The notes under the pieces were generated by a model, which searched no databases, had not been told where the DNA came from, and saw only the letters and a program-made list of their open reading frames with translations. This document shows positions 3,622 through 57,443 of a stretch of 64,000 nt of DNA, piece after piece; the first letter of the stretch is position 1, and every line of letters starts with the position of its first letter. The stretch lies in NCBI GenBank assembly GCA_964416095.1, contig CAYQCY010000002.1, positions 24,671 through 88,670 of the forward strand, read 5' to 3'. Position numbers and translations under genes: made by a program. The stretch comes from an uncultured Gemmatimonadaceae bacterium (lineage in GTDB: Bacteria; Gemmatimonadota; Gemmatimonadetes; Longimicrobiales; RSA9).

Positions 3622-4657
3622 TCGTCGTATTCGATGGTGAGCCGCCGGATCTCGGCGTCCACGTCCGTCAGGAGCTCGAGCCGTTCCTGGTGGGGCAGGA
3701 AGGCGCTCTCGAAGCCCATGCGCGCCACGCGCGTGAGGTCGTCCCAGGTGAAGCTCAGGTGGTGGTGGGCACGCCAGTACTCGTCGGTGACGGTGGTGCC
3801 GCTCATGAGGCGGTTGTCCGTGTTGAGCGTCACCACGATCCCCTCGTCGTAGTAGAGGCGAACGGGGTGTTCGGCGAAGGAGGGAACCGCCTGGGTCTGG
3901 ACGTTGCTGGTGAGGCAGATCTCGAGAGGGACCCGGAAGTCGTTCACGTACTGCATGAGGTCCTCGTCCTCGAAAAGCCGGGTCCCGTGGCCGATGCGCC
4001 GGGCGTTGCAGTGGTGCAGCGCTTCATGGATGGACTCGGGGCCGTACGCCTCGCCGGCGTGGATCGTGGCGGCGACGTTGGCGTTGCCCACCGTGTAGAA
4101 CGCCTCCCTGTGCTTGCGCGCCGGGTAATTGTACTCGGCCCCGGCGAGATCGAAGGCGACGACGCCCCGGTTCTTGAAGGCTACGGTCAGATCGGCCAGG
4201 TCCCTGGACGTCTCCGGGCTCATGTTCCGGATGCCGCAGATGATGACGCCGGTCCGGATCCCGTACACTTCTTCGGCCCGGCGCAGGCCCCGCAGGGGCG
4301 CCTCGACGGCCGCTTCCAGGTCCAGGCCCTCCAGGACGTTGAGGACCGGTGAGTAGCGGACCTCCATGTACCGGACGTTCTCCCTCGCGGCGTCTTCGGC
4401 CAGCTCGAACGCGATGCGCTCCAGGGCCGGCGCCGTCTGCATGACGGACAGCGTGATGTCGAACCGTTCCAGGTAGTCCACCAGGTCCCGGGCGTTCCGG
4501 ACGTGCATGAGGCCCGCGAGAGCCTGGGGGTCCGTGGAAGGGATCTTCTTGCCGTACTCCTTCGCCAGCTCGATCAGGGTTTCGGGTCGGACCGATCCGT
4601 CCAGGTGGACGTGGAGATCCGTCTTGGGCAGGCGCTCGAGGCGCTCGCGGGTGACGG

Positions 4658-14658: not shown

Positions 14659-16131
14659 TCACCGGATGTAGAAGGATACGCTGCCCACGCGCCGGTTGCG
14701 CTCGTAGTACAGGACCACCGTGCCGCGTCCCGACAGTCGGCCGAGAAGCTCGGCCGCTTCCTCCGCCGAACGGGTGCGCTGCCGATTGATTTGTAGGATC
14801 ACATCCCCTTCCCGCAACCCCAGGTCGCGGGCCGCGCCCGAGAGGGAGACGATGAGGGCGCCGCTCTCCGCCGCCACGCCGCGCTCCGCCCGGATCGCCG
14901 GCGTCAGGGTCACCAGCTCGAAGTCCTCCAGCGCCTGGATCCGCTCCGCCGTCAGGGACGGCAGGTCCTCCGGTACAAGCCGTACAGTGCCCCGGTCCGT
15001 GCGCACCACGAGGGGCTCTCCCGGCCGTGCCTGCAGGACGGCGGCCTCCCAGTCCAGCGGCGTCCGTACCGGCTCGCCGTCCACGGAGCGGATGATGGAT
15101 CCGGCGCGCAGACCCGCCTCCGAGCCCGGTGAGGGCTTCGCCACCCGCGCCACCTGGATGCTCCTGCTGCGGCCGAACCGGTTCGCCTCCGCAGGCTCCA
15201 CCTCCACACCGAGCCAGGCCCGCCGGACCATGCCGTCCCGGGCCAGGTCCGCGGCGACCCGGCGCGCCCGGTCGATGGGGATGGCGAACCCCAGCCCCTC
15301 GCTCCCCCCGGTCCGGGACAGGATCGAGGAGTTCACGCCCACCACCTCGCCGCGGGCGTTCACCAGGGGGCCGCCCGAGTTGCCGGGGTTGATGGACGCG
15401 TCCGTCTGGATCATGTCCAGGTAGTAGCCCGACTCATCCTGACCGCTGGGGATGATGTTGCGGCCCAGGGCGCTCACCACGCCGGCCGTGACCGTGGGCT
15501 CCGGGTTGGAGAGGAGGTACCCCAACGGATTGCCGATGGCCACTACCCACTCGCCGATCATCAGATCGCTGGACGTGCCGAGATCCACCGTGGGCAGGGG
15601 TTCGGGTCCGGGCTCGCCGATGCGCAGCACGGCCAGGTCGTTGACGTCGTCCGTGCCCACCAGTTCGGCGGCGAAATCGCGACCGTCGGCCAGCGTGACC
15701 ACGATCTCCTGGGCGCCGCGCACCACGTGCTCGTTCGTGAGGATGAGCCCGCTGGCATCGTAGATGAAGCCCGAGCCCAACCCCTGCACCACGCGCTCGT
15801 AGCCGCGAGGCACGAAGAAGCTCTCCCACAGGGACCGGGGCTGGACCGTCTGGCGACGGGTCACGTTGACGCTTACGACCGCCGGCGCCGCCCGCTCCGC
15901 CGCCCTGACGATGGCCGTGCGGCGGGAGGCGTCCAGCACCGTCTGCACCGTGTCCGGCCGCGGGAGAGCGGCCGGTGAGGCCGTGTCCCCCCCGGTCCGC
16001 TCCACCGGGGCAGAGGACGGGGGCGGCGCGGCGTAGGCCGTTCCCTCCGGGCCCGGCGCCTCGTCGCAGGCCGAGCAGGCCAGCATGGCCGCGAGGCCGA
16101 GAACGAGCCAGGGACGGGTCATGGCCCCCAT
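14659..16131 (-). CDS. htrA: HtrA/DegP-family periplasmic serine protease with PDZ domains
   Basis: Catalytic triad context TNEHVV / DLAVL / GNSGGPLVN, with C-terminal PDZ-like regions. Signal peptide MGAMTRPWLVLGLAAMLACSAC. Start at 16131 or 16122. Confidence 0.9.
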   Translation of the reverse strand: MGAMTRPWLVLGLAAMLACSACDEAPGPEGTAYAAPPPSSAPVERTGGDTASPAALPRPDTVQTVLDASRRTAIVRAAERAAPAVVSVNVTRRQTVQPRSLWESFFVPRGYERVVQGLGSGFIYDASGLILTNEHVVRGAQEIVVTLADGRDFAAELVGTDDVNDLAVLRIGEPGPEPLPTVDLGTSSDLMIGEWVVAIGNPLGYLLSNPEPTVTAGVVSALGRNIIPSGQDESGYYLDMIQTDASINPGNSGGPLVNARGEVVGVNSSILSRTGGSEGLGFAIPIDRARRVAADLARDGMVRRAWLGVEVEPAEANRFGRSRSIQVARVAKPSPGSEAGLRAGSIIRSVDGEPVRTPLDWEAAVLQARPGEPLVVRTDRGTVRLVPEDLPSLTAERIQALEDFELVTLTPAIRAERGVAAESGALIVSLSGAARDLGLREGDVILQINRQRTRSAEEAAELLGRLSGRGTVVLYYERNRRVGSVSFYIR

Positions 16132-16165
16132 CTCGTGCCTGCAGCCTCCCCGCGGCCCGTCACGT

Positions 16166-16945
16166 TCATGCTTCCAGCTCCTTTCCGCTCCCGGCGTAGC
16201 GCACGTGATCCAGGAACAGGCCCTCCGGCGGCGCCGGCGGCGACGTGGTGAGCCCGTTCGTCTCCGACAGCAGGGCGGCCAGCTCGGACAGGGGTCTGCC
16301 GCCCCGCGCCACGTCCACCATCGTGCCCACCAGGTACCGGACCATGTGGTGCAGGAAGCGGTTCGCCGTGATGCGAAACGTGTACCCGACGTCGTCCCAC
16401 GGACGCCACACGGCCTCGTGCACCACACATCGGTGGCCCCGTTCCTCCTGGCCGGACTTGGCGAACGCGCGGAAGGAGTGCGTTCCCACGAACAGCGCCG
16501 CCGCCTCCATCAGGACATCTCCGTCCAGCGCGTCCCGGACGGGCCAGCACCAGCGCCGCCGGAAGGGCGACCAGGCGATGTCCGCGGTGCCGACGCGATA
16601 GACGTAGGAACGAGCCACCGCGTCCCGCAGGGCATGGAACGAGCCCGATACCTCCTCGGCCGCCGCCACCCAGATGTCGGGCGGGAGGATCGCGTTCAGG
16701 GAGCGTCGGGCGTCCGTTGCCGTCCATCTGTCGGGCATGGCTGCCGAGACCACCTGGCCCGTGGCATGCACGCCGCGGTCGGTGCGCCCCGCCGCGATGG
16801 TTCCCACCGGACGGTCGGCCAGGCGTGAAAGGGCGGCTTCCAACTCGGACTGTACCGTCCGGACGCCGGGCTGGACCTGCCAGCCGTGGAACCCGCTGCC
16901 GTCGTAATGGAGCGTGAACTTGATCCGCCGTTCGGACGCCGTCAC
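16166..16945 (-). CDS. truA: tRNA pseudouridine(38-40) synthase
   Basis: KFTLHYDGSGFHGWQVQP and GRTDRGVHATGQV. GTG 16945 chosen (259 aa). The track ORF runs on upstream as an artefact. Confidence 0.85.
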   Translation of the reverse strand: MTASERRIKFTLHYDGSGFHGWQVQPGVRTVQSELEAALSRLADRPVGTIAAGRTDRGVHATGQVVSAAMPDRWTATDARRSLNAILPPDIWVAAAEEVSGSFHALRDAVARSYVYRVGTADIAWSPFRRRWCWPVRDALDGDVLMEAAALFVGTHSFRAFAKSGQEERGHRCVVHEAVWRPWDDVGYTFRITANRFLHHMVRYLVGTMVDVARGGRPLSELAALLSETNGLTTSPPAPPEGLFLDHVRYAGSGKELEA

Positions 16946-16953
16946 GGAGCCGA

Positions 16954-16981
16954 AAGCTACGCTCGGGCATGCGGGTGTCAA
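16954..16981 (-). promoter_or_regulatory. sigma70-like promoter of truA (TTGACA-N16-TAGCTT), probably leaderless
   Basis: Minus strand: TTGACA (16981-16976), 16-nt spacer, TAGCTT (16959-16954). The -10 element ends 8 nt before GTG 16945. Confidence 0.4.
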
Positions 16982-17446
16982 GCGAGTCCCGGCGGACGAA
17001 CAGGCGCCTCTCGCCTGGCCATCCGGCCGCATCGCCGCCCGCGGCGCCAGGACTTTCCCCAAAATGGCTGGGGCTTCTCCGTATCCCGTTGTGGTGCAAG
17101 AGATGGCGTCGATCGGAAAGTGGGAATTCAACGCGGACGCGCTGAATCGTTGCGCAAAGACGCAGGACGCTCGCGGCCTGCCGTTGCGTACCCGCCGCAG
17201 CCCGACCTTCGAGGCCTCTCGTCGGACGGCGACCTGACGCGCAACCCTTCGCGACCGCGGCTTCCGCGCAGCCGCCTCCATCCGCGTCCCCGCGTTGTCC
17301 CGACCGCGAAGGTGGCCCTGCCGCGGGGCCTGGCGATCGACCGGGTCCTCGCCGCGCTGCGAGCGGGAGCCCGACGGCGGCCTGATGTACCCGCCCGCAT
17401 CAGCGGGGAACCGGAAAAATGGGGAAAGTCCGCCCGTGGCCGCACG

Positions 17447-17504: not shown

Positions 17505-18581
17505 ATGTCTGAAGCCCACGAAACCGACGCGCCCACCCTCAAGGCGCTCATCGCGACCATCGCGGCCGGTGCCGACCTGAGCGTCCAGGACGCCGAGGCG
17601 GCGTTCGACGACGTCATGCAAGGCCGCGCTACGCCGGTCCAGATGGCAGGGCTGCTCGTGGGCCTCCGGGCCAAGGGCGAAGCCGCGGATGAAGTCGCCG
17701 GCGGCGTCCGCGCACTCCGCAGCGCCATGATCGCCGTGGAGGTCGACCCGGGCGGTGCCCCCGTGGTCGACACCTGCGGCACCGGCGGCGGTAGCCTCAC
17801 CACCTTCAACATCTCCACCGCCGCGGCGCTCCTGGCCGCCGGCGCCGGCGCCCGCATCGCCAAGCACGGGAACCGGTCCTTCACCTCGCGCTGCGGCAGC
17901 GCCGATGTTCTCGAAGAGCTCGGCGTGGTCATCGAGCTGCCGCCCGATGGCATGGCGGAGGTGCTCCGCGAGGCGGGCATCGTCTTCATGTTCGCCCCGC
18001 TCCTGCACCCCGCCATGCGCCACGTCGCGCCGGTGAGGAGAGAGCTCGGCATGCCCACCATCATGAACGTACTCGGGCCCCTCACCAATCCGGCCGGCGC
18101 CCGGCGGCAGGTCGTGGGCGTGGCCGACCCCGTGCTCCTCGAGCTCGTGGCTCGCGCCCTCCGTACTCTCGGTCACGAGCACGCGCTGGTCGTCCACGGC
18201 GAGCCCGGCATGGACGAGCTGAGCCCCCTGGGGCCCACCGAGATCATCGAGGTGGCCAACGGCGAGCTCCGCCATCAGCGCCTGGACCCGGGAGAGACCT
18301 TCGGGTGGGACGAGTTCCATGCCGAAGGCCTGGCGGGGCAGGAACGACGGCACAACGCCCGGGTCATCCACGACGTGCTGGCTGGCACGCTCCTGGGTGT
18401 CGCCCGGGCCGCCGTCACGCTCAACGCCGGGGCCGCCCTCTACGTTGCGGGAGAGGTCACCAGCCTGGAAGCGGGGGTGGCACGGGCGGAGGAGGCGGTG
18501 GACGCCGGCGTCGGCCTGGAGGCGCTGGACCGGCTCCGCACGGCGTCCCAAAAGGCCGCCAGCCGGGTGAGGGGACGCTAA
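17505..18581 (+). CDS. trpD: anthranilate phosphoribosyltransferase
   Basis: MSEAHETDAPTLKALI..., VVDTCGTGGGSL, KHGNRSFTSRCGSADVLE. Confidence 0.93.
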   Translation: MSEAHETDAPTLKALIATIAAGADLSVQDAEAAFDDVMQGRATPVQMAGLLVGLRAKGEAADEVAGGVRALRSAMIAVEVDPGGAPVVDTCGTGGGSLTTFNISTAAALLAAGAGARIAKHGNRSFTSRCGSADVLEELGVVIELPPDGMAEVLREAGIVFMFAPLLHPAMRHVAPVRRELGMPTIMNVLGPLTNPAGARRQVVGVADPVLLELVARALRTLGHEHALVVHGEPGMDELSPLGPTEIIEVANGELRHQRLDPGETFGWDEFHAEGLAGQERRHNARVIHDVLAGTLLGVARAAVTLNAGAALYVAGEVTSLEAGVARAEEAVDAGVGLEALDRLRTASQKAASRVRGR

Positions 18582-18727
18582 CGTTCCGACGGGGCGGACT
18601 CTGGCCTGCCCGTCACCACGCCGCGGAGCGTGAAGGGGCCACGAATCGGCGCCGGCGCCTCCCGCAGCACGACGACACGCGTACCGCGCTCCGTCTTCGT
18701 CCCCACCAGAAACGGTTTCGCCTTCAT
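18578..18727 (-). CDS. hypothetical 49-aa protein translationally coupled to lexA (below ORF-track cutoff)
   Basis: Hand translation: MKAKPFLVGTKTERGTRVVVLREAPAPIRGPFTLRGVVTGRPESAPSER*. Its ATG overlaps the lexA stop (ATGA at 18724-18727). About 80% G/C at third positions. It fills the trpD/lexA convergent gap. Confidence 0.3.
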   Translation of the reverse strand: MKAKPFLVGTKTERGTRVVVLREAPAPIRGPFTLRGVVTGRPESAPSER

Positions 18728-19335
18728 CCATACCTCCGCAGCACGCCCACCACGATGCCCTGGACCAGGACCCGGTCGGCCGAATAGTACATGGGCTCCA
18801 TGGCCGGGTTCGCCGGCTGCAACCGGATGCGACCGTCCGGCTCCCGGTACAGCTTCTTTACGGTGGCGGACTCGCCGTCCACCAGCGCCACGACCATCTC
18901 GCCGTTCTCCGCCGACGGACGGGCGTTCACCACGATGTAGTCGCCGTCCCGGATCTGCTCGTCGATCATGGAATCGCCGCTGACCCGCAGCACGTAATGG
19001 CTTCCGCGCCGCCGCAGGAAGTCGTCCGGCACCGCCACCATCTCGTCATCCCGGATCGCCTCGATGGGCATCCCCGCCGCAACCGCGCCCATGAGCGGCA
19101 GCTCCACCGCCGAGACGCGGGACCCCGTCGGGATCAGTTCCAGCGACCGGCTCTCGTTGTAGCTCTTTCGGATGAACCCCTTTTGCCGCAGATTCTCGAG
19201 GTGTTCGTGTACCGTGGCAAGCGAGGAATAGCCGAAGTGCCGCGCGATCTCCTCGAAGCTCGGCGAATAGCCGTTCTCCTCCACGAACTCCCGGACGAAG
19301 TCCAGTATCTGTTTCTGCCGTTTCGTCAGCGGCAT
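18724..19335 (-). CDS. lexA: LexA repressor
   Basis: MPLTKRQKQILDFVREFVEENGYSPSFEEIARHFG wHTH. Ala-Gly cleavage site (AVAAGMPI), catalytic Ser (VSGDSMID) and Lys (ATVKKL). ATG 19335 preceded by GGAGGG. Confidence 0.93.
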   Translation of the reverse strand: MPLTKRQKQILDFVREFVEENGYSPSFEEIARHFGYSSLATVHEHLENLRQKGFIRKSYNESRSLELIPTGSRVSAVELPLMGAVAAGMPIEAIRDDEMVAVPDDFLRRRGSHYVLRVSGDSMIDEQIRDGDYIVVNARPSAENGEMVVALVDGESATVKKLYREPDGRIRLQPANPAMEPMYYSADRVLVQGIVVGVLRRYG

Positions 19336-19358
19336 GGTTGCCCTCCAGGTCTGCAAGG

Positions 19359-19384
19359 CGGTGCCGAACAGGCACCGAACGAAC
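19359..19384. promoter_or_regulatory. candidate LexA operator (SOS box)
   Basis: Plus strand has GAAC-N7-GAAC-GAAC (19366-19384), which reads GTTC-N7-GTTC on the lexA strand. It overlaps a perfect palindrome CGGTGCC-N5-GGCACCG (19359-19377). The site lies between the lexA -10 element and RBS. Confidence 0.45.
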
Positions 19385-19410
19385 ATACCCGAATGGAAAC
19401 CGAAACGCAA
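19382..19410 (-). promoter_or_regulatory. sigma70-like promoter of lexA (TTGCGT-N17-TATGTT)
   Basis: Minus strand: TTGCGT (19410-19405), 17-nt spacer, TATGTT (19387-19382). The operator candidate is immediately downstream. Confidence 0.4.
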
Positions 19411-19412
19411 GG

Positions 19413-20207
19413 ATGAACGTGCTGGACGGCATCATGGCGCGGAAGCGGGTGGAGGCGGCGTCGCTGGCGCGGTGGGAGTCTGCGTTGCGCGACCAGGCGG
19501 CGGAGGCACCGGGTCCGCGGTCGCTGGTGGGGGCGTTGCGGCGGGACGGCGAGGTGTCGGTGCTGGCGGAGGTGAAGCGAAAGTCGCCGTCGGCGGGGTG
19601 GATCCGGGAGGGTGCGGATGCGGCGGGGACGGCGGCGGTCTACGAGGCCGGGGGTGCGGCGGGGGTGAGCGTGCTGACGGACGAGGAGGGGTTCGGCGGC
19701 ACGCTGGACGATCTGCGGGCGGTGCGCGGCGCGGTGTCGGTGCCCGTGCTGCGGAAGGACTTCATCGTGGCGCCGGCCCAGGTCTGGGAGGCGCGGTCCG
19801 CGGGCGCGGATGCGGTGCTGCTCATCGTGGCGGTGCTGGATGCGGAGAAGCTGGAGGAGCTGCTGGCGGCGGTGAGAGACGCGGGCATGGAGGCGCTGGT
19901 GGAGGTGCACGCGGCGGATGAGCTGGAGCGGGCGCTGGCAGCGGGAGCGTCGCTCATCGGCGTGAACAACCGCGACCTGAGCACGTTCGAGGTGGATCTC
20001 ACGGTGGCGGAGCGGCTGGCGGCGGAGGTGCCGGACGAGGTCGTGCTGGTGGGGGAGAGCGGGATCCAGGGGCCGGAGGATGTGGAACGGCTCGGTGCGG
20101 CCGGGGTGGATGCGGTACTGGTGGGCGAGTCGCTGATGCGGGCCGCGGACGCGCTGACGGCGACGGAGGCGTTGACGGGCCGACGCAAGGCGCGTCGTCG
20201 ACCGTGA
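19413..20207 (+). CDS. trpC: indole-3-glycerol phosphate synthase
   Basis: MNVLDGIMARKR..., VLAEVKRKSPSAG, GVNNRDL. ATG 19413 preceded by AAGGA. Confidence 0.93.
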   Translation: MNVLDGIMARKRVEAASLARWESALRDQAAEAPGPRSLVGALRRDGEVSVLAEVKRKSPSAGWIREGADAAGTAAVYEAGGAAGVSVLTDEEGFGGTLDDLRAVRGAVSVPVLRKDFIVAPAQVWEARSAGADAVLLIVAVLDAEKLEELLAAVRDAGMEALVEVHAADELERALAAGASLIGVNNRDLSTFEVDLTVAERLAAEVPDEVVLVGESGIQGPEDVERLGAAGVDAVLVGESLMRAADALTATEALTGRRKARRRP

Positions 20208-20926
20208 TGCGGAAGGCCGCCGGCTTCGTCCGCGGCCGTGATCTGCACGGACAGGACGAGAGAGAAGGAGTGGCGAAGGTCAAGATCTGCGGGCTCTGTC
20301 GACCGGAGGACGCGGCCCACGCGGTGGCGGCGGGCGCCACCCACGTGGGTGTCGTTCTGGTGCCGGGTAGCCGTCGGGGGCAGGAGGTGGAGCGGGCCGC
20401 CGAGATCTACGCGGCGGCGACGGGCGCCGTTCGCGTGGGCGTCTTCGCGGATGAGGACCCGGACCGACTCGTCGAGCTGGGTGAGGTGCTGGGCCTGGAC
20501 GTGCTCCAGCTCCACGGCGACGAGAGCCCGGGCACCGCGCGCCGGGTCCGGGACGGGGGGCCGTGGGCGGTGTGGAAGGCCATCCGTCCGCGGAACCGGG
20601 CCGAATACGATGCCGGCGTGATCAGCTTCGCGGCAGCCGCCGACGGTGTCCTGGTGGACGGCTTCAGCGCGGGTGCGCGAGGCGGCACGGGAGCCCGGGC
20701 CCCGTGGTCGGAGCTGGCGGGCGCGGGCGAGGCCGTGCCGGAGGGTCTCATCCTCATCCTGGCGGGCGGGTTGACGCCGGCGAACGTGGCGGAGGCCGTG
20801 GCGCGGGTGCGCCCGGCGCTTGTGGACGTGAGCTCGGGGGTGGAGTCGGAGCTGTGCCGCAAGGATCCGGGTCGTGTGGAACGGTTCATCGTCGCCGCCC
20901 GCCAGGCGACGGACGCAGTGACGTGA
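20204..20926 (+). CDS. trpF: phosphoribosylanthranilate isomerase
   Basis: VKICGLCRPEDA..., ILAGGLTPANV, VDVSSGVE. Start is either GTG/ATG 20204-20209 overlapping the trpC stop, or GTG 20270. Confidence 0.85.
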   Translation: MMRKAAGFVRGRDLHGQDEREGVAKVKICGLCRPEDAAHAVAAGATHVGVVLVPGSRRGQEVERAAEIYAAATGAVRVGVFADEDPDRLVELGEVLGLDVLQLHGDESPGTARRVRDGGPWAVWKAIRPRNRAEYDAGVISFAAAADGVLVDGFSAGARGGTGARAPWSELAGAGEAVPEGLILILAGGLTPANVAEAVARVRPALVDVSSGVESELCRKDPGRVERFIVAARQATDAVT

Positions 20927-20951
20927 AGGGTTCGGGAGGAGTCTGTAGGAC

Positions 20952-22133
20952 ATGGAAGCGAAGACGGTGACGGGTCGGTTCGGGGACTACGGTGGCCGGT
21001 ATGTGCCGGAGACGCTCACGGGCGCTCTCGACGAGTTGACCTCCGCGTACGAGGCCGTCCGGTCCGATGCGGCGTTCTGGGATGAGCTGAACGGGCTGCT
21101 CCGGGACTACGTGGGCCGGCCCACGCCCCTGTATCGGGCACGGCGGCTCGGGGATGCGGCCGGGGTGGAGCGCCTGTATCTGAAGCGGGAGGACCTGAAC
21201 CACACCGGCGCCCACAAGATCAACAACACGCTGGGCCAGGTCCTGCTGGCCCGGCGCATGGACAAGCGCAGGATCATCGCGGAGACCGGGGCGGGCCAGC
21301 ACGGAGTGGCGACGGCCACGGTGTGCGCCCTCTTCGGGCTGGACTGCGTGGTCTACATGGGCGCGGAGGACGTGCGCCGGCAGGCGCTGAACGTCTACCG
21401 GATGGAGCTCCTGGGCGCGGAGGTGCGGACGGTGGAGTCGGGGACCCGCACGCTGAAGGACGCGACGAACGAGGCCATCCGCGACTGGGTGACGAATGTG
21501 CGGGACACGCACTACATTATCGGCTCGGTGGTGGGGCCCGACCCGTATCCCCGGCTGGTGCGGGATTTCCAGGCCGTCATCGGACGTGAGACCCGGGACC
21601 AGTTCCAGCGGATCGAGGGCCGGTCGCCGGCGGCGGTGGTGGCCTGTGTAGGTGGCGGCTCCAACGCCATGGGCATATTCCACGAGTTCGTGCCGGACGA
21701 GAGCGTGGAGCTGGTGGGCGTGGAAGCGGCCGGAGAGGGGCTGGACACGGGACGCCACGCCGCGTCCCTGGTGGCGGGGGTGCCGGGCGTGCTACACGGG
21801 TCCCTGAGCTACCTGCTCCAGGACGAGGCCGGGCAGGTGGCGCCGGCCCACTCCGTGTCCGCGGGGCTGGACTACCCGGGCGTGGGCCCGGAGCACGCGT
21901 ACTTGCGCGACACGGGGCGTGCCGAGTACGTCAGTGTGTCGGACGGGGAGGCGCTGGACGCCTTCCACCGGATGTCCGAGCTGGAGGGGATCATCCCGGC
22001 CCTCGAGAGCGCCCATGCGGTTGCCTGGGTGCTGAGCGAGGGGCGCCGCTGGCAGGATGACCCCGTCGTGATCTCGCTCAGCGGTCGCGGCGACAAGGAT
22101 GTCGCTGAAGTCGCCGCGCTGGGCCAGGACTGA
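20952..22133 (+). CDS. trpB: tryptophan synthase beta chain
   Basis: [16 protein letters not shown] (PLP lysine) and [19 protein letters not shown] upstream. Confidence 0.95.
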
Positions 22134-22146
22134 ACGAGCGAAGTCG

Positions 22147-23916
22147 ATGGCGGACGGACCCGGCGAGACCATGGATGAGCTCGACCTGACGCTCCCGCCC
22201 CGGGAGCTCGAGGTCTCGGATGTCGAGACGCTGCTCTCGACGTTGGGGAAGGCCGTCCGTGCGTTCCAGATCTACAAGGCCAACAACCCGGTGCTGCAGC
22301 GCTTCATCGAGGCGCTGCGGGACGGGTTCGAAGGACTCTGGGACAAGACGGACCGCCTGGAGCTCCGCGTGGTGGAGAAAGGCCTGCGTTGGGGGGACCG
22401 GACCTTCTCCATGGGCGAGGGCCGCGAGAACCTCGCCTTCCTCTTCTACAAGGACGGCATCCGCTACCTGACCTTCCTGCCCGGCTTCGAGGACGAGATG
22501 CCCGCCTTCCTCGAGGTCGTGCACCGGGCGCGGCAACTGGACCATGATGCCGAGGACGACCTCATCACGCTCCTCTGGGAGCAGGACTTCGCATCGTTCC
22601 AGTACGGCTACATGGACCAGCTCGTGGAGGGGCTCACGCTGCCGGAGGCGGAGGGGAGAGAGCCGGAGCAGGTGACGCCGACCACGGTGCAAACGGACGC
22701 CGTGGACCGCGGTGCGGAACGGGCGGACTCCGGCCAGCCCGTGTCCCTGGTGGACGACGAGGAGCCCGTACAGCCCCTGGGCACCGTGTCCCGGGATGAC
22801 TTCGAGGACACGCTCTACTTCCTGGATCCGTCCGAGCTGGCGACACTCGAGAAGGAAGTGTCGTTGGAGATGGAGCGTGACCTCCACACGGCTGTCCTCC
22901 GCGCCCTGTTCGACCGGGTCGAGGACCCGGATGAGAAACGTCAGCGCGAGGTCCTGGACATCCTCGACCAGTTGCTCCCCATCTTCCTGAGCCGTGGCCA
23001 CCTGTCCTCCGCCGCCCACGTCCTCAAGGAGCTCGATGCCCTGAAGGCCGGCGATGTGCTGGGCGGCGAGTTGAGCGGGCGCGTGGAGCAGCTCTTCGAG
23101 ACGCTCAGCCAGCCCTCGATCCTGGAACAGTTCGTGGAGATCCTCGAGCATGGCCAGATGGAGCTGGACGCAGCCGATCTCGGCCTCTTCTTCGCGCGGC
23201 TCCGGCCCAAAGCCTTGCCCGTCCTCATCCGGTCGGCCCAGCTCACGGAGGTGGAGAGCGTCCGTACCCGGCTCCATGCGGCCATCGACGGGCTGGCCCA
23301 GTCACACCCGAACGAGGTGATGGCCCTCTTCCGGGCCGAGGACCCCGCCATCCTCCGGGGCGCCGCGGCGCTGGCGGGCCGAACCGGAATGAACCAGGCC
23401 ACCCCCGCGCTGAAGGCGTTGTTGAACAGCCACGAGGATGCGGACGTGCGCCTTGCCGTGGCCCGGGCCCTCATCGCCATCCGGTCCACGGCGACGCTGA
23501 CCGTGCTCATCGACGCCCTGGAAGACGATGAGCGCGAGGTCCGGGTCGCCGCGGCCCGCGGCCTTGCCGCCGCACGCTTCGCCTCGGCCAAGGAACGGCT
23601 CGCGGCGCTCATCGACAGCAAGCAGGTGCGTGAGGCGGACCTCACCGAGATGATCGCCTTCTTCGAGGCGTACGGCATCATCGGCGGTGCGTCCGCCGTC
23701 GCCACCCTCGACGAGATGCTCAACTACAAAGGGATGCTGGGTCGCCGGAATCCGGCGGAACAGCGGGCCTGCGCCGCCCTGGCCCTGGGCAAGATCGGGA
23801 CGCCGGAGGCCCGGAAGGCCCTGCAAGACGCCGGCGGAGACGAAGATCCCGTGGTCCGGAACGCCGTGAACCGGGCACTCCGCGGAGAAGACGCCGACAC
23901 CGCGGGAAGCGCGTGA
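22147..23916 (+). CDS. HEAT-repeat protein with uncharacterised N-terminal domain
   Basis: ATG 22147 lies 13 nt after the trpB stop. C-terminal HEAT/PBS-lyase-like repeats (DADVRLAVARALIAI, DDEREVRVAAARGLA, EDPVVRNAVNRAL). The N-terminal ~130 aa is similar to the N-terminus of the next protein. Confidence 0.75.
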   Translation: MADGPGETMDELDLTLPPRELEVSDVETLLSTLGKAVRAFQIYKANNPVLQRFIEALRDGFEGLWDKTDRLELRVVEKGLRWGDRTFSMGEGRENLAFLFYKDGIRYLTFLPGFEDEMPAFLEVVHRARQLDHDAEDDLITLLWEQDFASFQYGYMDQLVEGLTLPEAEGREPEQVTPTTVQTDAVDRGAERADSGQPVSLVDDEEPVQPLGTVSRDDFEDTLYFLDPSELATLEKEVSLEMERDLHTAVLRALFDRVEDPDEKRQREVLDILDQLLPIFLSRGHLSSAAHVLKELDALKAGDVLGGELSGRVEQLFETLSQPSILEQFVEILEHGQMELDAADLGLFFARLRPKALPVLIRSAQLTEVESVRTRLHAAIDGLAQSHPNEVMALFRAEDPAILRGAAALAGRTGMNQATPALKALLNSHEDADVRLAVARALIAIRSTATLTVLIDALEDDEREVRVAAARGLAAARFASAKERLAALIDSKQVREADLTEMIAFFEAYGIIGGASAVATLDEMLNYKGMLGRRNPAEQRACAALALGKIGTPEARKALQDAGGDEDPVVRNAVNRALRGEDADTAGSA

Positions 23917-25367
23917 TGACGACGACGAACGGCGCACCCCTGGTCGACAGCGGCGGGGCCCTGCAGCGGCACGGCCAGACCCTTCTGTACGCCTTCTACT
24001 CGGCACTCCAGGCGATGAAGCTCTACCCCCTCGAGAACGCCACCGTTCAGAAGGCCATCGACGAGCTCCACAAGATCGCGTCGCGCATCGCCGAGCGTGA
24101 GCAGGTGGTGGACGTCAGCTTCGTGGGCGACTTCGTCTTCCTGAACGACGTGCGCCTGCGCCTGGACCTGTCGAGCTACGCGGCGTACTCCCTCGTTTCC
24201 AACTCATTCTCCCGCAATGGCATAGGGGATCTCGAGATCCACCAGGGGGTGGAGCGGTCCGAGTGGCCGCCGTTCCTGTCGCTGCTGATGGAGAAGGTCG
24301 GCGAGGACGAGGAGGACCCGTTCCGGCGGTTCATGAACCGGCTGGCAAGGACGGCGGTGGAGCACATCCGAGTGGGTCCGGAACCGGAGCGGCGTGACCC
24401 CGGGGTGGAGAAGGAGGGGTCGAAGGAGGCGGCGAAGCGGGCGTACGCCCAGACGGTGCAGGTTGCGCACGACGTGCTGACGGACGTGCGTTTGGGCCGG
24501 GCGGTCAACGTGCGGCGGGTGAAGCGGGCGGTCCAGTCCATCGTGGATCAGGTGCTGAACAACGAGACGTCGATCGTGGGGATGACGACGCTACGGGATT
24601 ACGACGAGTACACGTTCACGCACTCGGTGAACGTGTGCATTTTCAGCGTCGTGCTGGGCCAGAAGCTGGGCCTGGACAAGCTGCAGCTGTACGAGCTGGG
24701 TCTCGGGGCACTCTTCCACGACATCGGCAAGATGCGGATCGACCCGGAGATCACGAACAAGCCGGAGGCGTTGTCGGACGAGGAGTTCGAGATGATGAAG
24801 CAGCACCCTACGGAGGGGCTGCTGGCGCTCTTCAACATGCACGGGTTCGGGCACGTTCCGTTCCGGGCCATGCTCATGGCGTACGAGCATCACATGAAGA
24901 CGGACCTGACGGGCTACCCGCCGAACAAGCGGGAGCGGAAGCCGACGCTGTTCAGCCGGATCGTGGCGGTGGCGGACGGGTTTGACGCGGCTACATCGCA
25001 GCGGGCGTACCAGACGGCGTGGCGGCCGGAGGATGCGTTGCGGGAGATGAAGGACAACCCGCGTCGAGGCTTCGACCAGCTACTGGTCAAGGCCATGATC
25101 AACGTCACGGGAATCTACCCGGTGGGGCAGGTCGTGATCCTGGACACGTACGAGCTGGGCGTGGTCGTGGCGCCGAACCCGGACCCGAAGAAGCTGAACC
25201 AGCCGGTGGTGAAGATCATCATCGACTCCATGGGGATCCCGCTGCCGGAGCCGCAGACGGTGGACCTCGGGGAGGTAGACCCGGAGACCGGCGAGGCCCG
25301 TCGCACGGTCATCAAGACGACCGATCCGGAGCGGTATGGCATCAAGGTCAGCGACTACTTCGTCTGA
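23913..25367 (+). CDS. HD-GYP-like domain protein (degenerate GYP motif) with uncharacterised N-terminal domain
   Basis: HSVNVCIFSVVLG...LGALFHDIGK...YEHHMKTDLTGYPP...VAVADGFDAATSQRAY. Start is GTG 23913 or ATG 23916, overlapping the upstream TGA. Confidence 0.82.
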   Translation: MMTTTNGAPLVDSGGALQRHGQTLLYAFYSALQAMKLYPLENATVQKAIDELHKIASRIAEREQVVDVSFVGDFVFLNDVRLRLDLSSYAAYSLVSNSFSRNGIGDLEIHQGVERSEWPPFLSLLMEKVGEDEEDPFRRFMNRLARTAVEHIRVGPEPERRDPGVEKEGSKEAAKRAYAQTVQVAHDVLTDVRLGRAVNVRRVKRAVQSIVDQVLNNETSIVGMTTLRDYDEYTFTHSVNVCIFSVVLGQKLGLDKLQLYELGLGALFHDIGKMRIDPEITNKPEALSDEEFEMMKQHPTEGLLALFNMHGFGHVPFRAMLMAYEHHMKTDLTGYPPNKRERKPTLFSRIVAVADGFDAATSQRAYQTAWRPEDALREMKDNPRRGFDQLLVKAMINVTGIYPVGQVVILDTYELGVVVAPNPDPKKLNQPVVKIIIDSMGIPLPEPQTVDLGEVDPETGEARRTVIKTTDPERYGIKVSDYFV

Positions 25368-26154
25368 TTCGGATCCCCTGGCCGCCCGGTTCGCAGGCTG
25401 GGCCGGGGCCGGGCGGCGTGCATTGATCCCCTACCTGACGGCGGGCTTTCCGACACCGGACCGGACGGTCCCGCTCCTCCGGGCGCTGGCCGGCGCCGGC
25501 GCCGACGTGATCGAGCTCGGGGTTCCCTTCAGCGATCCGCTGGCGGACGGTCCTACGATCCAGCGCGCGTCCCAGTTGGCCATCCAGGCCGGTGGCTGCC
25601 TCGCAGGTGCGCTGGACGCGTTGCGAGCCTTCCGGGCGGATGCGGATACCGCCGTGGTGCTGTTCAGCTACCTGAACCCGGTACTCCGGTACGGCGTGGA
25701 CCGGTTCCTGGAGGATGCGGTGGGGGCGGGGGCGGACGGCGTGCTGCTGACGGACCTGCCGTTGGGATCGGATCCGGACCTGGAGTCGAAGTTCGAGGGC
25801 GCGTCGATCTCGCTGGTCCGGCTCATTGCCCCTACGACGTCCTGGAGCCGGGCGCTGGACATTGCGCGCCACGCGCAGGGCTTCGTCTATTTCATCTCCC
25901 GGACGGGAGTCACGGGAACGCGGCGGGAGCTCCCGCCGGAGCTCACGGAGGCTGTGGGCCATCTCCGTGGCGCCGCGGCTGTGCCGGTGGCGGTGGGGTT
26001 CGGCATCTCCACGCCGGAGCATGCGGCCCGGGTGGCGACGGTCGCCGACGGTGTCGTGGTGGGGAGCGCCCTGATCGAGGCTATCGAGCGGGACGGAGAG
26101 GATGGCGCGACCCGGTTCCTGTCCGAACTGCGCGCGGCCATGGACGCGGTCTGA
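25336..26154 (+). CDS. trpA: tryptophan synthase alpha chain
   Basis: LIPYLTAGFP..., ELGVPFSDPLADGPTIQ, YFISRTGVTG. ATG 25336 overlaps the upstream ORF by 32 nt, so the true start could be later. Confidence 0.9.
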   Translation: MASRSATTSSDSDPLAARFAGWAGAGRRALIPYLTAGFPTPDRTVPLLRALAGAGADVIELGVPFSDPLADGPTIQRASQLAIQAGGCLAGALDALRAFRADADTAVVLFSYLNPVLRYGVDRFLEDAVGAGADGVLLTDLPLGSDPDLESKFEGASISLVRLIAPTTSWSRALDIARHAQGFVYFISRTGVTGTRRELPPELTEAVGHLRGAAAVPVAVGFGISTPEHAARVATVADGVVVGSALIEAIERDGEDGATRFLSELRAAMDAV

Positions 26155-26176
26155 GCCGGGTCCGACGCCTCTTTGG

Positions 26177-27874
26177 CTAGGCCCTGAGCCTCCGTTCGAG
26201 GGCCTCGTCGGGCTCGACGAACACGGTCTCGACCCGGTCCGGGGCGACCAGGCCCGGGGGCGCGTTCCGGGGCTTCCTGACGTATTTCCGGCGGGTCCAG
26301 TCCACGGGCACCGTCCCCGACGTGCGGGCCTTGCTGTGCCACGCGGCCAGCGCCGCGGCCTCGTGGAGGTCCCGCTTGGGCGGGTTCTGCTCCCGGTTCG
26401 GCCAGCGCAGCACGACGTGGGCACCGGCCGCGTCCCGGGCGTGGAGCCAGATGTCGTCCGGGGACGAATGGTGGAAGGTCAGGGCATCGTTGGCCTTGCG
26501 GCCGCGCCCTACCCGGACCTCGAGGCCGCCGGAGGTGCGGTACGTGCGGTAGGGGAGCCTCTTCCCCTGACTTCGTGGGCCTTTGTCCCGGTCCGCCTCG
26601 AGATCGGCCAGGAGCTGGCGTAGCCCGTCGTGGTCGGGCGTGCCGCCCTCGACGCCTTCGAGGAGCGCCTCGAGTCGCTGCAGCCTCGCTTCGGTGGCGG
26701 CCACCACGGCCGGAAGCTTCTCCGCCGCCCGTTCCCGCTTGGCCGCCTGCTCGTACATGAGCTCCGCGTTGTGCGCCGGGCTCTTGCCCGGATCCAGCGA
26801 CACCTCGACCGTCTCTCCCGAGAAGTCCTCCAGCTCGACCCGTTCCCGGCCCCTCTCCACCTGGTTCAGGCGCGCAAGGAGCAGGTCGGCCCGGGAGCGC
26901 AGGGTCAGAGCCGCGTCCGGAGCCGCCCGCAGCTCGGCACGAAGGGCTTCGAGCCTGCGCTCGAGGGACGCCCTGTGCTCTTCAAGGCGGTCCAGGGCTT
27001 CGGGGGTGACCGCCGCCTCCGCCTCGGGATGCGTCACGGCCGCCATGGCGTCCAGGATGGTATCCACGGGCTCGTCGGCCACGCCCGGCAGGGGCACGGG
27101 GTAGGCGGTGGGCCCGCGCGGCAGGTCCAGCACGCGGGGCGCCGGATCCGGTGCCGACGGCGGCGCCAGCGTCCGGTAGCGCTCGAGTGCATCGGGCAGC
27201 GCCCGGTCCGCGTCGGCTCGGGACGCGTCCGGATCCCCCGCGCGTCCGAGGATGGCGCCGGCGTTCAGCGGGCTCGTCCACGCCACGGACCGTACCAGGG
27301 CTCGCCGTCGGTCCCGGGGTGCCTCATGGCCCAGCAGGCGGTTCCAGGTCCCGGCCGTGAGCACCTCGTCGTGCCCGGCCCGGGGTCCGCCCGGCGGCTG
27401 GGGCGCAGTGTACACGGCACCCGGCACGAGCCGGCGCCCGCCGGCCTCCCGGGACCAGAGAACCGCCGCGATGCGCCCACCGCCGTCCAGCGCCAGGGCG
27501 TTCCACTGATTCGTCAAGAGCTCCACGGTGAGGCGGTGGATCCGGCTCCTGCCCGCCCCGGAGAGCACGAAGGACAGGACCCGTTCATCACGAACCGCCT
27601 CCACGGCCGCGATGCGTCCCTGGCGGGGCAGCCGGATACGGCCCGCGGCGGCCGTGGCCTCGGGGTCGCGGACGGGCGGCCGGTCCAGGCGCTGCAGGCG
27701 GCCGCGGGCGGGGTGCAGCTCCCAGACCAGCACGACCCCGTCCAGCTCCAGGACGATCCGGCGTGCGGATGCATCCATCTCGAGGCCGCGAATGCGGCGT
27801 CGTACCAGCGTTTCGTCCAGCTCCCGGGCGAGGTGGTGGACCAGGAGCGAATCGTACAGGATCGGGTTTGACAC
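26177..27874 (-). CDS. NFACT-family protein (FbpA/RqcH-like: NFACT-N, coiled coil, NFACT-R/DUF814)
   Basis: N-terminus VSNPILYDSLLVHHLARELDETL, long Ala/Arg/Glu coiled coil, C-terminus GLEVRVGRGRKANDALTFHHSSPDDIWLHARDAAGAHVVL. GTG 27874 chosen. The track's longer start would overlap panB. Confidence 0.78.
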   Translation of the reverse strand: MSNPILYDSLLVHHLARELDETLVRRRIRGLEMDASARRIVLELDGVVLVWELHPARGRLQRLDRPPVRDPEATAAAGRIRLPRQGRIAAVEAVRDERVLSFVLSGAGRSRIHRLTVELLTNQWNALALDGGGRIAAVLWSREAGGRRLVPGAVYTAPQPPGGPRAGHDEVLTAGTWNRLLGHEAPRDRRRALVRSVAWTSPLNAGAILGRAGDPDASRADADRALPDALERYRTLAPPSAPDPAPRVLDLPRGPTAYPVPLPGVADEPVDTILDAMAAVTHPEAEAAVTPEALDRLEEHRASLERRLEALRAELRAAPDAALTLRSRADLLLARLNQVERGRERVELEDFSGETVEVSLDPGKSPAHNAELMYEQAAKRERAAEKLPAVVAATEARLQRLEALLEGVEGGTPDHDGLRQLLADLEADRDKGPRSQGKRLPYRTYRTSGGLEVRVGRGRKANDALTFHHSSPDDIWLHARDAAGAHVVLRWPNREQNPPKRDLHEAAALAAWHSKARTSGTVPVDWTRRKYVRKPRNAPPGLVAPDRVETVFVEPDEALERRLRA

Positions 27875-27896
27875 GTCCCGAAGATGCGTATAGCTT
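27868..27896 (+). promoter_or_regulatory. sigma70-like promoter of panB (TTGACA-N17-TAGCTT)
   Basis: TTGACA 27868-27873 and TAGCTT 27891-27896, about 70 nt upstream of ATG 27966. Confidence 0.4.
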
Positions 27897-27965
27897 CGCA
27901 CCACCGTCAACTGCAGGAATGGTGCGTATTTACGCGCTTTTCCCGACCCCGACCCTGGCTGACAG

Positions 27966-28790
27966 ATGAGCACCGGCGCCGACGGTGTGCGTCCCGTGAG
28001 GACGCGCGAGCTTCTGGAGATGAAGCGGCGTGGCGACGCCATCGTCGCCCTCACGGCGTACGACTACCTGTTCGCGCGCCTCGTCGACGCCGCCGGCGTG
28101 GACATCGTGCTGGTGGGCGACTCGCTGGGCCAGGTGGTGCTGGGCCACGATTCCACGATCCCGGTGACGCTGGACACCATGATCCATCACACGCGGGCCG
28201 TGCGGCGCGGCGTGAAGCGAGGGCTCGTGGTGCTGGACATGCCCTTCATGACCTACGGCGTCTCGGAGGAGGAGACGCTGCGGAACGCGGCCCGGGCGAT
28301 GCAGGTGGGCGGTGCGCAGGCCGTGAAGCTGGAGGGGGGCGGGGCCGAGATCTGCCGCCATGTCGAGCGCCTGGTCCACGCCGGCATCCCGGTCATGGGC
28401 CATATCGGGCTGACGCCGCAGTCCGTCCACGCACTGGGCGGCTACCGGGTCCAGGGCCGGGAGTCTGCGGAAGCCGACCGGCTGCGCAGCGAAGCGCGAG
28501 ACCTGGCCGAGGCCGGCTGCTTCGCCGTCGTCCTCGAGCTCGTCCCGGCGACGCTCGCGGGGGAGATCACCCGGGCCATCGAGATTCCCACCATCGGGAT
28601 CGGCGCCGGACCGGATGTGGACGGCCAGGTCCTCGTGCTCCACGACATGCTCGGGCTGAACGAGGCGTTCGCGCCGAAGTTCCTCAAGCGGTTCGCCGAC
28701 CTGGCGGGGGCGGCCCGGGAAGGCATCGAGGACTACGTGCAGGCCGTGCGCGAGCGGACGTACCCGTCCTCCGAGCATTCCCACGAGTGA
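27966..28790 (+). CDS. panB: 3-methyl-2-oxobutanoate hydroxymethyltransferase
   Basis: LTAYDYLFARLVDAAGVDIVLVGDSLG and VKLEGG. Confidence 0.95.
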   Translation: MSTGADGVRPVRTRELLEMKRRGDAIVALTAYDYLFARLVDAAGVDIVLVGDSLGQVVLGHDSTIPVTLDTMIHHTRAVRRGVKRGLVVLDMPFMTYGVSEEETLRNAARAMQVGGAQAVKLEGGGAEICRHVERLVHAGIPVMGHIGLTPQSVHALGGYRVQGRESAEADRLRSEARDLAEAGCFAVVLELVPATLAGEITRAIEIPTIGIGAGPDVDGQVLVLHDMLGLNEAFAPKFLKRFADLAGAAREGIEDYVQAVRERTYPSSEHSHE

Positions 28791-29620
28791 AGATCGTCGA
28801 GACGAAGGCGGCGGTCCGCAGCGAGCTGGCGCACCGGCGCTCGTCGCGTATCGCGCTGGTCCCCACGATGGGGTACCTGCACGAGGGGCACCTCTCCCTC
28901 GTGGACCGGGCCCGGGAAGTGGCCGATCACGTGGTGGTTTCCATCTTCGTCAACCCGCTCCAGTTCGGCGCCGGCGAGGACCTGGCCACCTACCCCCGGG
29001 ATCCGGACCGGGATGCGGCCCTGGCGCGGGAACGGGGCGTGGACCTGGTCTTCGCGCCGTCGGCCGAGGAGATGTACTCCGGGGAGTCGGCCGTGCGCAT
29101 CGTGCCGGTCCGCATGGCGGATCGCCTGTGCGGCGCCTTCCGGCCGGGCCATTTCGAGGGCGTGCTCACCGTGGTGGCCAAGCTGTTCAACGTGGTTCAG
29201 CCCGATGTGGCCGTGTTCGGGCAGAAGGACTACCAGCAGGCGGTCCTGATCCGGGCCATGGTCCGGGACCTGGACCTGCCGGTGGAGATCGACGTGGCGC
29301 GCATCGTGCGGGAGCCCGACGGGCTCGCCATGAGCTCCAGGAACGAGTACCTGGACGCCGCGGCACGGCGCCGGGCCACCCGGCTGTGGCAGGGGCTGCG
29401 GGCCGCGGCCGACGCCTTCCGGTCCGGCGAGCGGGACCCCGCCCGGCTGTGTGGATGGGTCGAGGATGCGCTGGGCGGAGCGGACATCGAGCCCCAGTAC
29501 GTGGAGCTGGTGGACCCCGAGACGTTGGAGCCCCTGGAACTCGCCCGGCCCGGTGGCGTACTTGCCGTCGCGGCCGTGGTCGACGGCACGCGCCTCATCG
29601 ACAACATCGTGCTGGAGTGA
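28787..29620 (+). CDS. panC: pantoate-beta-alanine ligase
   Basis: GTG 28787 overlaps the panB stop (GTGA). ALVPTMGYLHEGHLSLV and FVNPLQFG. Confidence 0.93.
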   Translation: MKIVETKAAVRSELAHRRSSRIALVPTMGYLHEGHLSLVDRAREVADHVVVSIFVNPLQFGAGEDLATYPRDPDRDAALARERGVDLVFAPSAEEMYSGESAVRIVPVRMADRLCGAFRPGHFEGVLTVVAKLFNVVQPDVAVFGQKDYQQAVLIRAMVRDLDLPVEIDVARIVREPDGLAMSSRNEYLDAAARRRATRLWQGLRAAADAFRSGERDPARLCGWVEDALGGADIEPQYVELVDPETLEPLELARPGGVLAVAAVVDGTRLIDNIVLE

Positions 29621-57053: not shown

Positions 57054-57443
57054 CTAGTACAGAGGGCGGTCGGTCTTGCGCCACTCGATCTCCGGCTGGT
57101 GCTTGAAGCGGATGACGGGGTCCGGTCCGTCGTGGTAGTAGAAGTCGAAGGCGTAGACGTGCCCCGTCCCCAGGCGGTAGCGCAGCTCGAAGAGCGTCGT
57201 GTCGTCCGTGCGCGTGGTGTCGATGGCTTGTAGCCGGTGGACCGTGACTTTGCCGCGCCCGATGGCGAACATGACGACATCCTTGTCCAACTGAAAACCG
57301 CGCCCCTGGTACCTTCCCTCGTCGGTGACCCAGACGCCCCGGACCGGTTCGGGGATGCCGTCGAGGTCCCCCGCCGATCCGCAGCCCATGCCCAGCAGCG
57401 CGAGAACCACCACGCCGCGCATCACGATCGTTCTACGGTTCAC
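57054..57443 (-). CDS. hypothetical lipoprotein
   Basis: Signal peptide with lipobox (VVVLALLGMGCGS). No recognisable family. GTG 57443 overlaps the upstream stop by 11 nt; alternative ATG at 57422. Confidence 0.6.
   Translation of the reverse strand: MNRRTIVMRGVVVLALLGMGCGSAGDLDGIPEPVRGVWVTDEGRYQGRGFQLDKDVVMFAIGRGKVTVHRLQAIDTTRTDDTTLFELRYRLGTGHVYAFDFYYHDGPDPVIRFKHQPEIEWRKTDRPLY

Follow-up and report, generated by a model that had tools for sequence, protein, structure and literature searches.

A HEAT-repeat and HD-GYP gene pair lies between trpB and trpA across the Longimicrobiales

Genes of unknown role situated between trpB and trpA have been described in Burkholderia, in Flavobacterium and on a Sargasso Sea contig (Kagan et al. 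2008, PMC2395257, citing Xie et al. 2003); as far as these inserts are described there, they consist of one or more unrelated same-strand genes that are lineage-specific and vertically inherited. Here we describe an insert at the same position in a 64,000-nucleotide stretch of DNA from an uncultured Gemmatimonadaceae bacterium (contig CAYQCY010000002.1; hereafter the window), where trpC, trpF and trpB are followed by trpA on the same strand after 3.2 kb that encode a HEAT-repeat protein and an HD-GYP protein. It resembles the Burkholderia, Flavobacterium and Sargasso Sea inserts in the respects just listed; by description only, it differs from those of Burkholderia and Flavobacterium in comprising 3.2 kb and two genes, for a predicted signalling enzyme and its dedicated partner, in overlapping trpA tightly, and in existing independently in other lineages.

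Inserts within trp operons, including between trpB and trpA, are already known, meaning that the suggestion in the initial annotation of this DNA that the arrangement is undescribed stands only in part: we found no paper on this arrangement, whereas trpB/trpA inserts in general are on record (PMC2395257). The present case is set apart by which genes were inserted, by their being a two-gene unit of signalling type, by how tightly they are coupled to trpA and by the occurrence of the same unit outside trp operons. Neither pairs of HEAT-repeat and HD-GYP genes, nor HD-GYP proteins in connection with tryptophan synthase, nor the order of trp genes in Gemmatimonadota turned up in full-text searches, whose coverage is incomplete and which are no proof of novelty.

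The shared strand and the 3.2-kb split of trpB from trpA, both claimed at the outset, were borne out by open reading frames (ORFs) at every coordinate checked, and the proposed content of the insert by Pfam matches above cut-off to HEAT_2 and HD_5. The genes concerned are as follows.

19413-20207, plus strand: trpC, indole-3-glycerol-phosphate synthase (Pfam IGPS, 276.4 bits).
20204-20926, plus strand: trpF, phosphoribosylanthranilate isomerase, given as the maximal ORF (Pfam PRAI, 127 bits, match from residue 26).
20952-22133, plus strand: trpB, tryptophan synthase beta (TIGR00263, 616.7 bits, cut-off 392).
22147-23916, plus strand: gene for the HEAT-repeat protein, 589 amino acids (Pfam HEAT_2).
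23913-25367, plus strand: gene for the HD-GYP protein, 484 amino acids from GTG 23913 or 483 amino acids from ATG 23916 (Pfam HD_5).
25336-26154, plus strand: trpA, tryptophan synthase alpha (TIGR00262, 231.7 bits, cut-off 102).

TrpB and TrpA both pass the NCBIfam equivalog cut-offs, and the real start of trpF is probably some 20 codons inside the maximal ORF.

Between trpB and trpA the insert forms a tightly packed, operon-like two-gene unit of signalling type, and direct reading of its three junctions agrees with the earlier description of them. A 13-nt gap separates the trpB stop TGA, whose last base is 22133, from the HEAT ATG at 22147; homologue N-termini of the form M(A/P)DGP back this start. 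At 23913-23919 the string GTGATGA contains the HEAT stop TGA (23914-16), which overlaps the HD-GYP start, be it GTG 23913 or ATG 23916. The HD-GYP stop ends at 25367 and the trpA ATG lies at 25336, an overlap of 32 nt that follows from this ATG being the sole in-frame ATG, GTG or TTG upstream of the conserved TrpA N-terminus. The choice of HEAT and HD-GYP starts is supported by database entries of 589 and 483 amino acids that are 100% identical to the inserted products. A consensus scan of 18500-26600 agreed with the initial annotation in finding no promoter or terminator at any junction, a test of low power at the roughly 70% G+C of the window; its sole terminator-like match was a 5-bp stem within the HEAT ORF, against 2.1 expected by chance. 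In sharing a strand, having short or overlapping junctions and containing no intervening signal in this low-power scan, trpCFB-HEAT-HD-trpA is laid out as an operon. No leader, riboswitch, T-box or tRNA came up when the whole window was scanned for Rfam families and tRNAs.

The arrangement is conserved across the order. Scanning one genome per species, seeded with an alignment of the HD-GYP protein, gave 80 loci, which by label are metagenome-assembled genomes (MAGs) of the Gemmatimonadota lineage, one 'uncultured bacterium' excepted, and in which the HD-GYP protein is 56-69% identical to that of the window; the nearest homologues of both inserted proteins likewise come from Gemmatimonadota MAGs, mostly labelled Longimicrobiales. 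Mapping by tblastn placed the genes of nearly all 80 loci in the order trpD-lexA(-)-trpC-trpF-trpB-HEAT-HD-trpA-NFACT(-)-panB-panC; L045 and L069, both MAGs of Longimicrobium sp., are among those with the arrangement. Counting only loci with enough flanking DNA, the HEAT gene is directly upstream of the HD-GYP gene in 66 of 66, trpB is upstream of the HEAT gene in 54 of 60 and trpA is downstream of the HD-GYP gene in 65 of 71; lexA is present in 49 of 49 and the NFACT gene in 56 of 63. The HEAT/HD-GYP junction has a median of -4 nt (20 nt or less in 70 of 71), the HD-GYP/trpA junction also has a median of -4 nt (20 nt or less in 55 of 71, with recurrent classes of -32, -23 and -4 nt), and the trpB/HEAT junction is the loosest, spanning -4 to 197 nt around a median of 27 nt (20 of 57 do not exceed 20 nt). 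Recurring as it does in dozens of independent genomes, this junction layout exceeds chance.

Because that scan was seeded with the insert itself, we also scanned metagenomes with TrpA as the seed. The HD-GYP gene lies directly upstream of trpA in all six contigs that have a TrpA at least 51% identical and room upstream, two of which carry the full trpB-HEAT-HD-trpA order with an HD-GYP identity of only 46-49%, and canonical trpB-trpA adjacency appears in 49 contigs with more distant TrpA. Together with the order-wide gene order, this establishes the split as a fixed, ancient character of the clade that is neither strain-specific nor recent, and so disposes of the strain-specific insertion that comparison of relatives might have revealed. 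Median identities are 59% for the HD-GYP protein and 58% for TrpA, the former being more conserved than TrpC or TrpF; the HEAT protein, at 42%, is near TrpF (45%) and NFACT (43%). Separately, five metagenome contigs with TrpA 44-48% identical (L100, L108, L111, L116 and L151) have about 0.4-0.85 kb between trpB and trpA; the gaps in these unrelated contigs look like other, smaller insertions or long spacers.

The pair also exists without trp genes. An exhaustive search of cluster representatives recovered full-length HD-GYP relatives of about 480 amino acids down to roughly 29% identity. We viewed the genomic context of nine distant relatives, of 29-45% identity, and in the eight where the upstream gene was visible a HEAT-repeat gene abuts the HD-GYP gene upstream; the full-length ones among these HEAT genes encode 567-618 amino acids, the junctions range from an 8-nt overlap to an 8-nt gap, and none of the eight loci has trp genes nearby. 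One distant relative belongs to a cluster labelled candidate division TA06, the others are on metagenome contigs, and a fragment in another cluster carries the label of a deltaproteobacterial MAG, 'Deltaproteobacteria bacterium SM23_61'.

In some of the 80 loci the trp genes have been lost around the pair. Three loci (L041, L044, which lies on the complete chromosome OZ245038.1, and L067) read htrA-truA-lexA-HEAT-HD-NFACT-panB, with the trp genes gone and the remaining synteny intact; in two more (L006 and L026) trpD, trpC, trpB and trpA are gone from the locus and trpF alone is kept; L047 has no trpA at the locus; and in L015 the pair sits in a different context. In a neighbour-joining tree of the HD-GYP proteins rooted with the distant pairs, which represents a single protein and carries no support values, the trp-less loci are scattered at separate places within trp-bearing clades, indicating at least three to four independent trp losses with the pair retained. 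As a cassette, the HEAT/HD-GYP pair is autonomous: either it is older than its association with trp, or it exists independently of that association. This divides the idea, put forward with the first description of the locus, that a second-messenger module is tied to tryptophan synthase: the operon-like insert is real, whereas a functional tie is weakened by the distant trp-free pairs and by the retention of the pair after trp loss. In L006 (2854-3534) and L026 (3498-4166), the trpF-like gene, 47-50% identical, lies between lexA and the HEAT gene.

HD-GYP enzymes usually carry REC, GAF or PAS domains as their N-terminal modules. The inserted HD-GYP protein matches Pfam HD_5 at 68.6 bits (cut-off 27.2) and HD at 44.8 bits, and has HD and HH...GYP motifs. 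Its AlphaFold2 model (mean predicted local distance difference test score, pLDDT, 91.6) begins with an N-terminal alpha/beta domain (residues ~10-156), continues through two long helices (163-226) into the HD-GYP domain (~230-400) and ends in a C-terminal beta-rich domain (~400-484). The best solved matches are PmGH (4mcw), V-cGAP3 (5z7c), PA4781 (4r8z), DvhD (9rbz) and Bd1817 (3tm8), with a Foldseek probability of 1.00 to 4mcw, 3tm8, 9rbz and 4r8z. The domain is of the HD superfamily, with the dyad H269-D270, and has the full metal-binding His/Asp set: H237, H269, D270, H298, H326, H327 and D358 align with PmGH residues and, together with G334-Y335-P336, show no or almost no variation among 60 sequences with identities as low as 28%. 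The HHExxDGxGYP signature is a variant, reading EHHMKTDLTGYP, in which HH and GYP are kept, Glu is replaced by Met and DG by DL, and Tyr233 occupies the position of PmGH Glu185 of the trinuclear site; V-cGAP3, deposited as a 3'3'-cGAMP-specific phosphodiesterase, also has a Tyr there. On these residues an active HD-GYP enzyme is plausible.

PmGH, PA4781, V-cGAP3 and DvhD share with the inserted protein the HD-GYP catalytic fold with its HD, HH and GYP motifs and His/Asp metal ligands, and likewise have a regulatory N-terminal domain connected via long helices. The inserted protein differs from such enzymes in having an N-terminal domain with no Pfam match or solved sequence relative, an extra C-terminal beta-rich domain, HHM for HHE, Tyr for PmGH Glu185, and a co-operonic HEAT partner that begins with the same domain. 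Bd1817 of Bdellovibrio, of the degenerate HDG"Y"P type, is likewise a stand-alone HD-GYP-type protein with an uncharacterised N-terminal domain, and gave the top target-normalised template modelling score (TM-score, 0.62) among matches that cover almost all of the target chain; DvhD, by its isolated HD-GYP domain, scored above it, at 0.73. Unlike Bd1817, the inserted protein keeps the GYP motif and the full ligand set, and the sequence similarity between the two is weak (E 1e-8) and confined to the catalytic domain. A DUF3391 (PF11871) domain was not found in the N-terminal domain: the match is sub-threshold (17.8 bits, cut-off 27.8), covers only residues 165-202 in the linker helix against profile positions 98-135, and appears, weakly, in nine of 60 family members. 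The window holds a second, unrelated HD-GYP protein (57433-59523, minus strand) with HAMP, GAF and HD-GYP domains and a canonical HHERYDGAGYP, meaning that the genome has more than one HD-GYP enzyme.

The partner belongs to the HEAT-repeat family by Pfam profile, AlphaFold2 model and Foldseek matches alike. HEAT_2 matches in three stretches (67.8 bits, cut-off 27.7) only over residues ~390-580; the model (pLDDT 84) has stacked helix pairs over 390-586 with pLDDT above 90; and the Foldseek matches are alphaRep and HEAT proteins of the protein phosphatase 2A (PP2A) A-subunit type. The protein comprises an N-terminal domain (~20-156), a disordered linker (~158-214), a helical middle and the C-terminal HEAT repeats (~390-585). 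PP2A also pairs a HEAT solenoid with a metal-dependent phosphohydrolase, and the Foldseek matches of the HEAT protein include its A-subunits; the likeness goes no further than analogy, as the catalytic folds are unrelated, the HEAT matches are generic and the present pair is known from genes and models. A PADLOC scan for defence systems gave only a generic HEAT-ARM match for the HEAT protein (19.9 bits) and nothing for the HD-GYP protein.

Both proteins begin with the same domain. With diverse sequences and the domains cut out, hhalign aligned the two N-terminal domains, of about 140 amino acids each, as homologues (98.5% probability, E 1.9e-15, 129 columns), and the secondary-structure elements predicted in the AlphaFold2 models run in the same order in both; a first comparison of full-length profiles restricted to Longimicrobiales, which are shallow, had given just 20% probability for homology of the domains. 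The shared domain matches no Pfam family (E up to 10) and has no solved relative in a PDB sequence search, and the isolated N-terminal, middle and C-terminal pieces gave nothing meaningful in either. That two strictly co-operonic proteins have this domain in common suggests that they pair through it or answer the same signal through it.

We consider it fairly probable that the locus records an ancient insertion of a cassette into a trp operon, so that the pair and the trp genes share expression and an inherited gene order and no biochemical function. No later than in the common ancestor of Longimicrobiales, an autonomous two-gene cassette would have entered an operon of the trpDCFBA type between trpB and trpA and been kept there since. 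It would encode a two-subunit cyclic-dinucleotide phosphodiesterase, the two subunits starting with the same ~140-amino-acid domain and associating, or being controlled, through it: a catalytic HD-GYP metal-dependent phosphodiesterase that hydrolyses c-di-GMP, 3'3'-cGAMP or pGpG, and a HEAT-repeat protein as non-catalytic scaffold or regulator. In the window, tight packing would couple the HEAT gene, the HD-GYP gene and trpA translationally; these genes would most likely be transcribed along with trpCFB, starting in the region where the divergent lexA promoter also lies, and trpA would depend on expression through the cassette. The tie to tryptophan synthase would then be an inherited accident of insertion, persisting because the region is generally syntenic and because excision of the pair would have to restore trpA expression.

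Several points weigh against this account. Co-transcription is read from overlapping junctions, and the promoter and terminator scans are nearly uninformative in 70% G+C DNA. In some lineages the trpB/HEAT spacer reaches 120-250 nt, and in L070 (~4085-4330) and L072 (~1420-1680) a very stable hairpin (-51 and -53 kcal/mol, z -5.9 and -8.1) directly follows the trpB stop, with sequences like TTGCAG/TTGTGC ... TAAACT downstream; the long spacers and these hairpins mean that read-through from trpB is not universal. The hairpins have no U-run, and simple scans called neither them nor the promoter-like sequences; a possible interpretation is a terminator or stabiliser followed by an internal promoter in a Longimicrobium-like subclade, in which HEAT-HD-trpA may be a separate unit. 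The loss of trp genes is known at the locus only, and a real functional link would likewise yield long retention inside the trp cluster. Heteromer formation and a cyclic-dinucleotide substrate are predictions, and with HHM for HHE and Tyr at Glu185 the activity or metal stoichiometry may differ from those of characterised enzymes.

A rival account makes HEAT-HD-trpA its own transcription unit, with a promoter in the 3' end of trpB or in the spacer; trpA would then be driven by the promoter of the cassette and expressed apart from trpCFB. The looseness of the trpB/HEAT junction and the L070/L072 hairpins with their downstream sequences speak for this, as do the trp-less loci, where the pair is evidently expressed alone from the spacer past the lexA block; yet the window has a gap of just 13 nt with nothing promoter-like in it, many loci have gaps of -4 to 30 nt, and the hairpins, having no U-run, failed the terminator scan, and we hold such a unit to be rather doubtful. 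The HD-GYP protein might instead be no enzyme at all and act as a degenerate nucleotide-binding protein or scaffold like the inactive Bd1817, the pair then being structural and not signalling. The HHM variant, the Tyr at the position of the Glu that completes the PmGH trinuclear site and the closeness of Bd1817 among solved folds are what one would cite for this, but ligands and GYP that stay (near-)invariant down to 28% identity, and the same Tyr in V-cGAP3, leave it with little credence. There is a negligible chance that the insert was acquired horizontally, recently and by one strain only, or that it is an artefact of assembly: the slightly lower G+C of the insert (0.63-0.70, flanks 0.70-0.74) is outweighed by its recurrence in dozens of independent assemblies, complete chromosomes included, and in the same order in metagenome contigs down to 46% identity, which refutes both versions.

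The remaining question is whether the position reflects function. The cassette could link cyclic-dinucleotide turnover to tryptophan supply or modulate tryptophan synthase directly, and we regard this as improbable; its variants, in which the N-terminal domain senses indole, indole-3-glycerol phosphate, serine or tryptophan, or the HEAT scaffold binds TrpA or TrpB, and selection keeps the pair in place, seem to us unlikely in the same degree. In their favour, the pair has kept its place between trpB and trpA throughout the order even though protein identities have dropped to 36-59%, the translational coupling of trpA is to the HD-GYP gene and not to trpB, and the uncharacterised N-terminal domain could be a ligand sensor. 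Set against them are the eight distant loci where the pair has no trp genes, its retention after trp deletion in at least three to four lineages, the synteny of the whole region including unrelated opposite-strand genes, and the fact that we found no paper tying HD-GYP proteins to tryptophan synthase. Indeed, the unrelated lexA and NFACT genes are kept at least as often as the trp genes, so that adjacency alone is no argument for a functional link, and the general synteny of the neighbourhood makes conserved adjacency weak evidence for one here. It is accordingly unlikely that the signalling module and tryptophan synthesis are linked biochemically. Bolder still, and quite improbable, is that the pair is an unrecognised, widespread two-subunit phosphodiesterase class built on a new sensor or dimerisation domain and that its fixation between trpB and trpA is adaptive; were this true, second-messenger turnover would be set by tryptophan-biosynthetic demand, or the N-terminal domain would sense a tryptophan-pathway metabolite, and amino-acid supply would feed directly into lifestyle signalling.

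Under the favoured account of an ancient insertion, the locus shows a biosynthetic operon permanently absorbing a foreign cassette, with trpA coupled to the inserted HD-GYP gene and not to its partner trpB, and it warns against inferring function from adjacency here, where the trp link is most likely regulatory hitch-hiking. As a genomic marker for Longimicrobiales the arrangement is clean and extends over the order. More valuable as a lead is the conserved pair of HEAT-repeat and HD-GYP proteins with a shared uncharacterised N-terminal domain, which occurs in several bacterial lineages and is a candidate for a new regulatory architecture in cyclic-dinucleotide signalling.

The genes and the spacer block flanking the operon-like unit are listed below.

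17505-18581, plus strand: trpD, anthranilate phosphoribosyltransferase (Pfam Glycos_transf_3, 288.6 bits, and Glycos_trans_3N).
18724-19335, minus strand: lexA (Pfam LexA_DNA_bind and Peptidase_S24), divergent from trpC, with its start CAT at 19333-19335.
19365-19411, strand not applicable: conserved block with four CCGAA repeats, whose final ACGCAAG stands 2 nt ahead of the trpC ATG.
26177-27871, minus strand: NFACT-family gene (Pfam NFACT_N and NFACT-R_1), convergent with trpA and 22 nt past it; its start codon is uncertain.

ORF positions and Pfam matches confirm that trpD is detached, as had been noted, with minus-strand lexA between it and trpC, and by tblastn mapping trpD is upstream of lexA in related loci as well. 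The reported absence of trpE and trpG from the window fits simple motif scans, a weak test, which found no TrpE or TrpG signature in it. Further out, at 14659-17100 (minus strand) and 26177-29620, an htrA-like protease gene, truA, the NFACT gene, panB and panC are syntenic across the order.

The block between lexA and trpC, about 50 nt long, is kept in the more than 50 spacers between lexA and the next gene that were compared among Longimicrobiales loci, with the consensus CCGAA-N6-CCGAA-N7..9-TACCCGAA-N6-CCGAAACGCAAG, and in trp-less loci the same block lies upstream of HEAT-HD. Read on the lexA strand it contains a promoter-like TTGCGT-17 nt-TATGTT and, overlapping this, four TTCGG repeats that recur every 11 nt, making it a candidate lexA promoter and LexA operator for the order. 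Any promoter of the trpC operon must also lie in the region of the block, and the trp/HEAT/HD operon may share control with lexA, since only 2 nt separate the block from the trpC ATG. An alphaproteobacterial-type LexA box, GAAC-N7-GAAC, was considered for this spacer and set aside in favour of the CCGAA-repeat block, being present in only seven of 52 spacers. In L065 and L061 the lexA/trpC spacers are enlarged by short tandem repeats downstream of the CCGAA block, with units resembling CGTCGGGCCNTA in L065 and CCCCTCTTCCGCA in L061.

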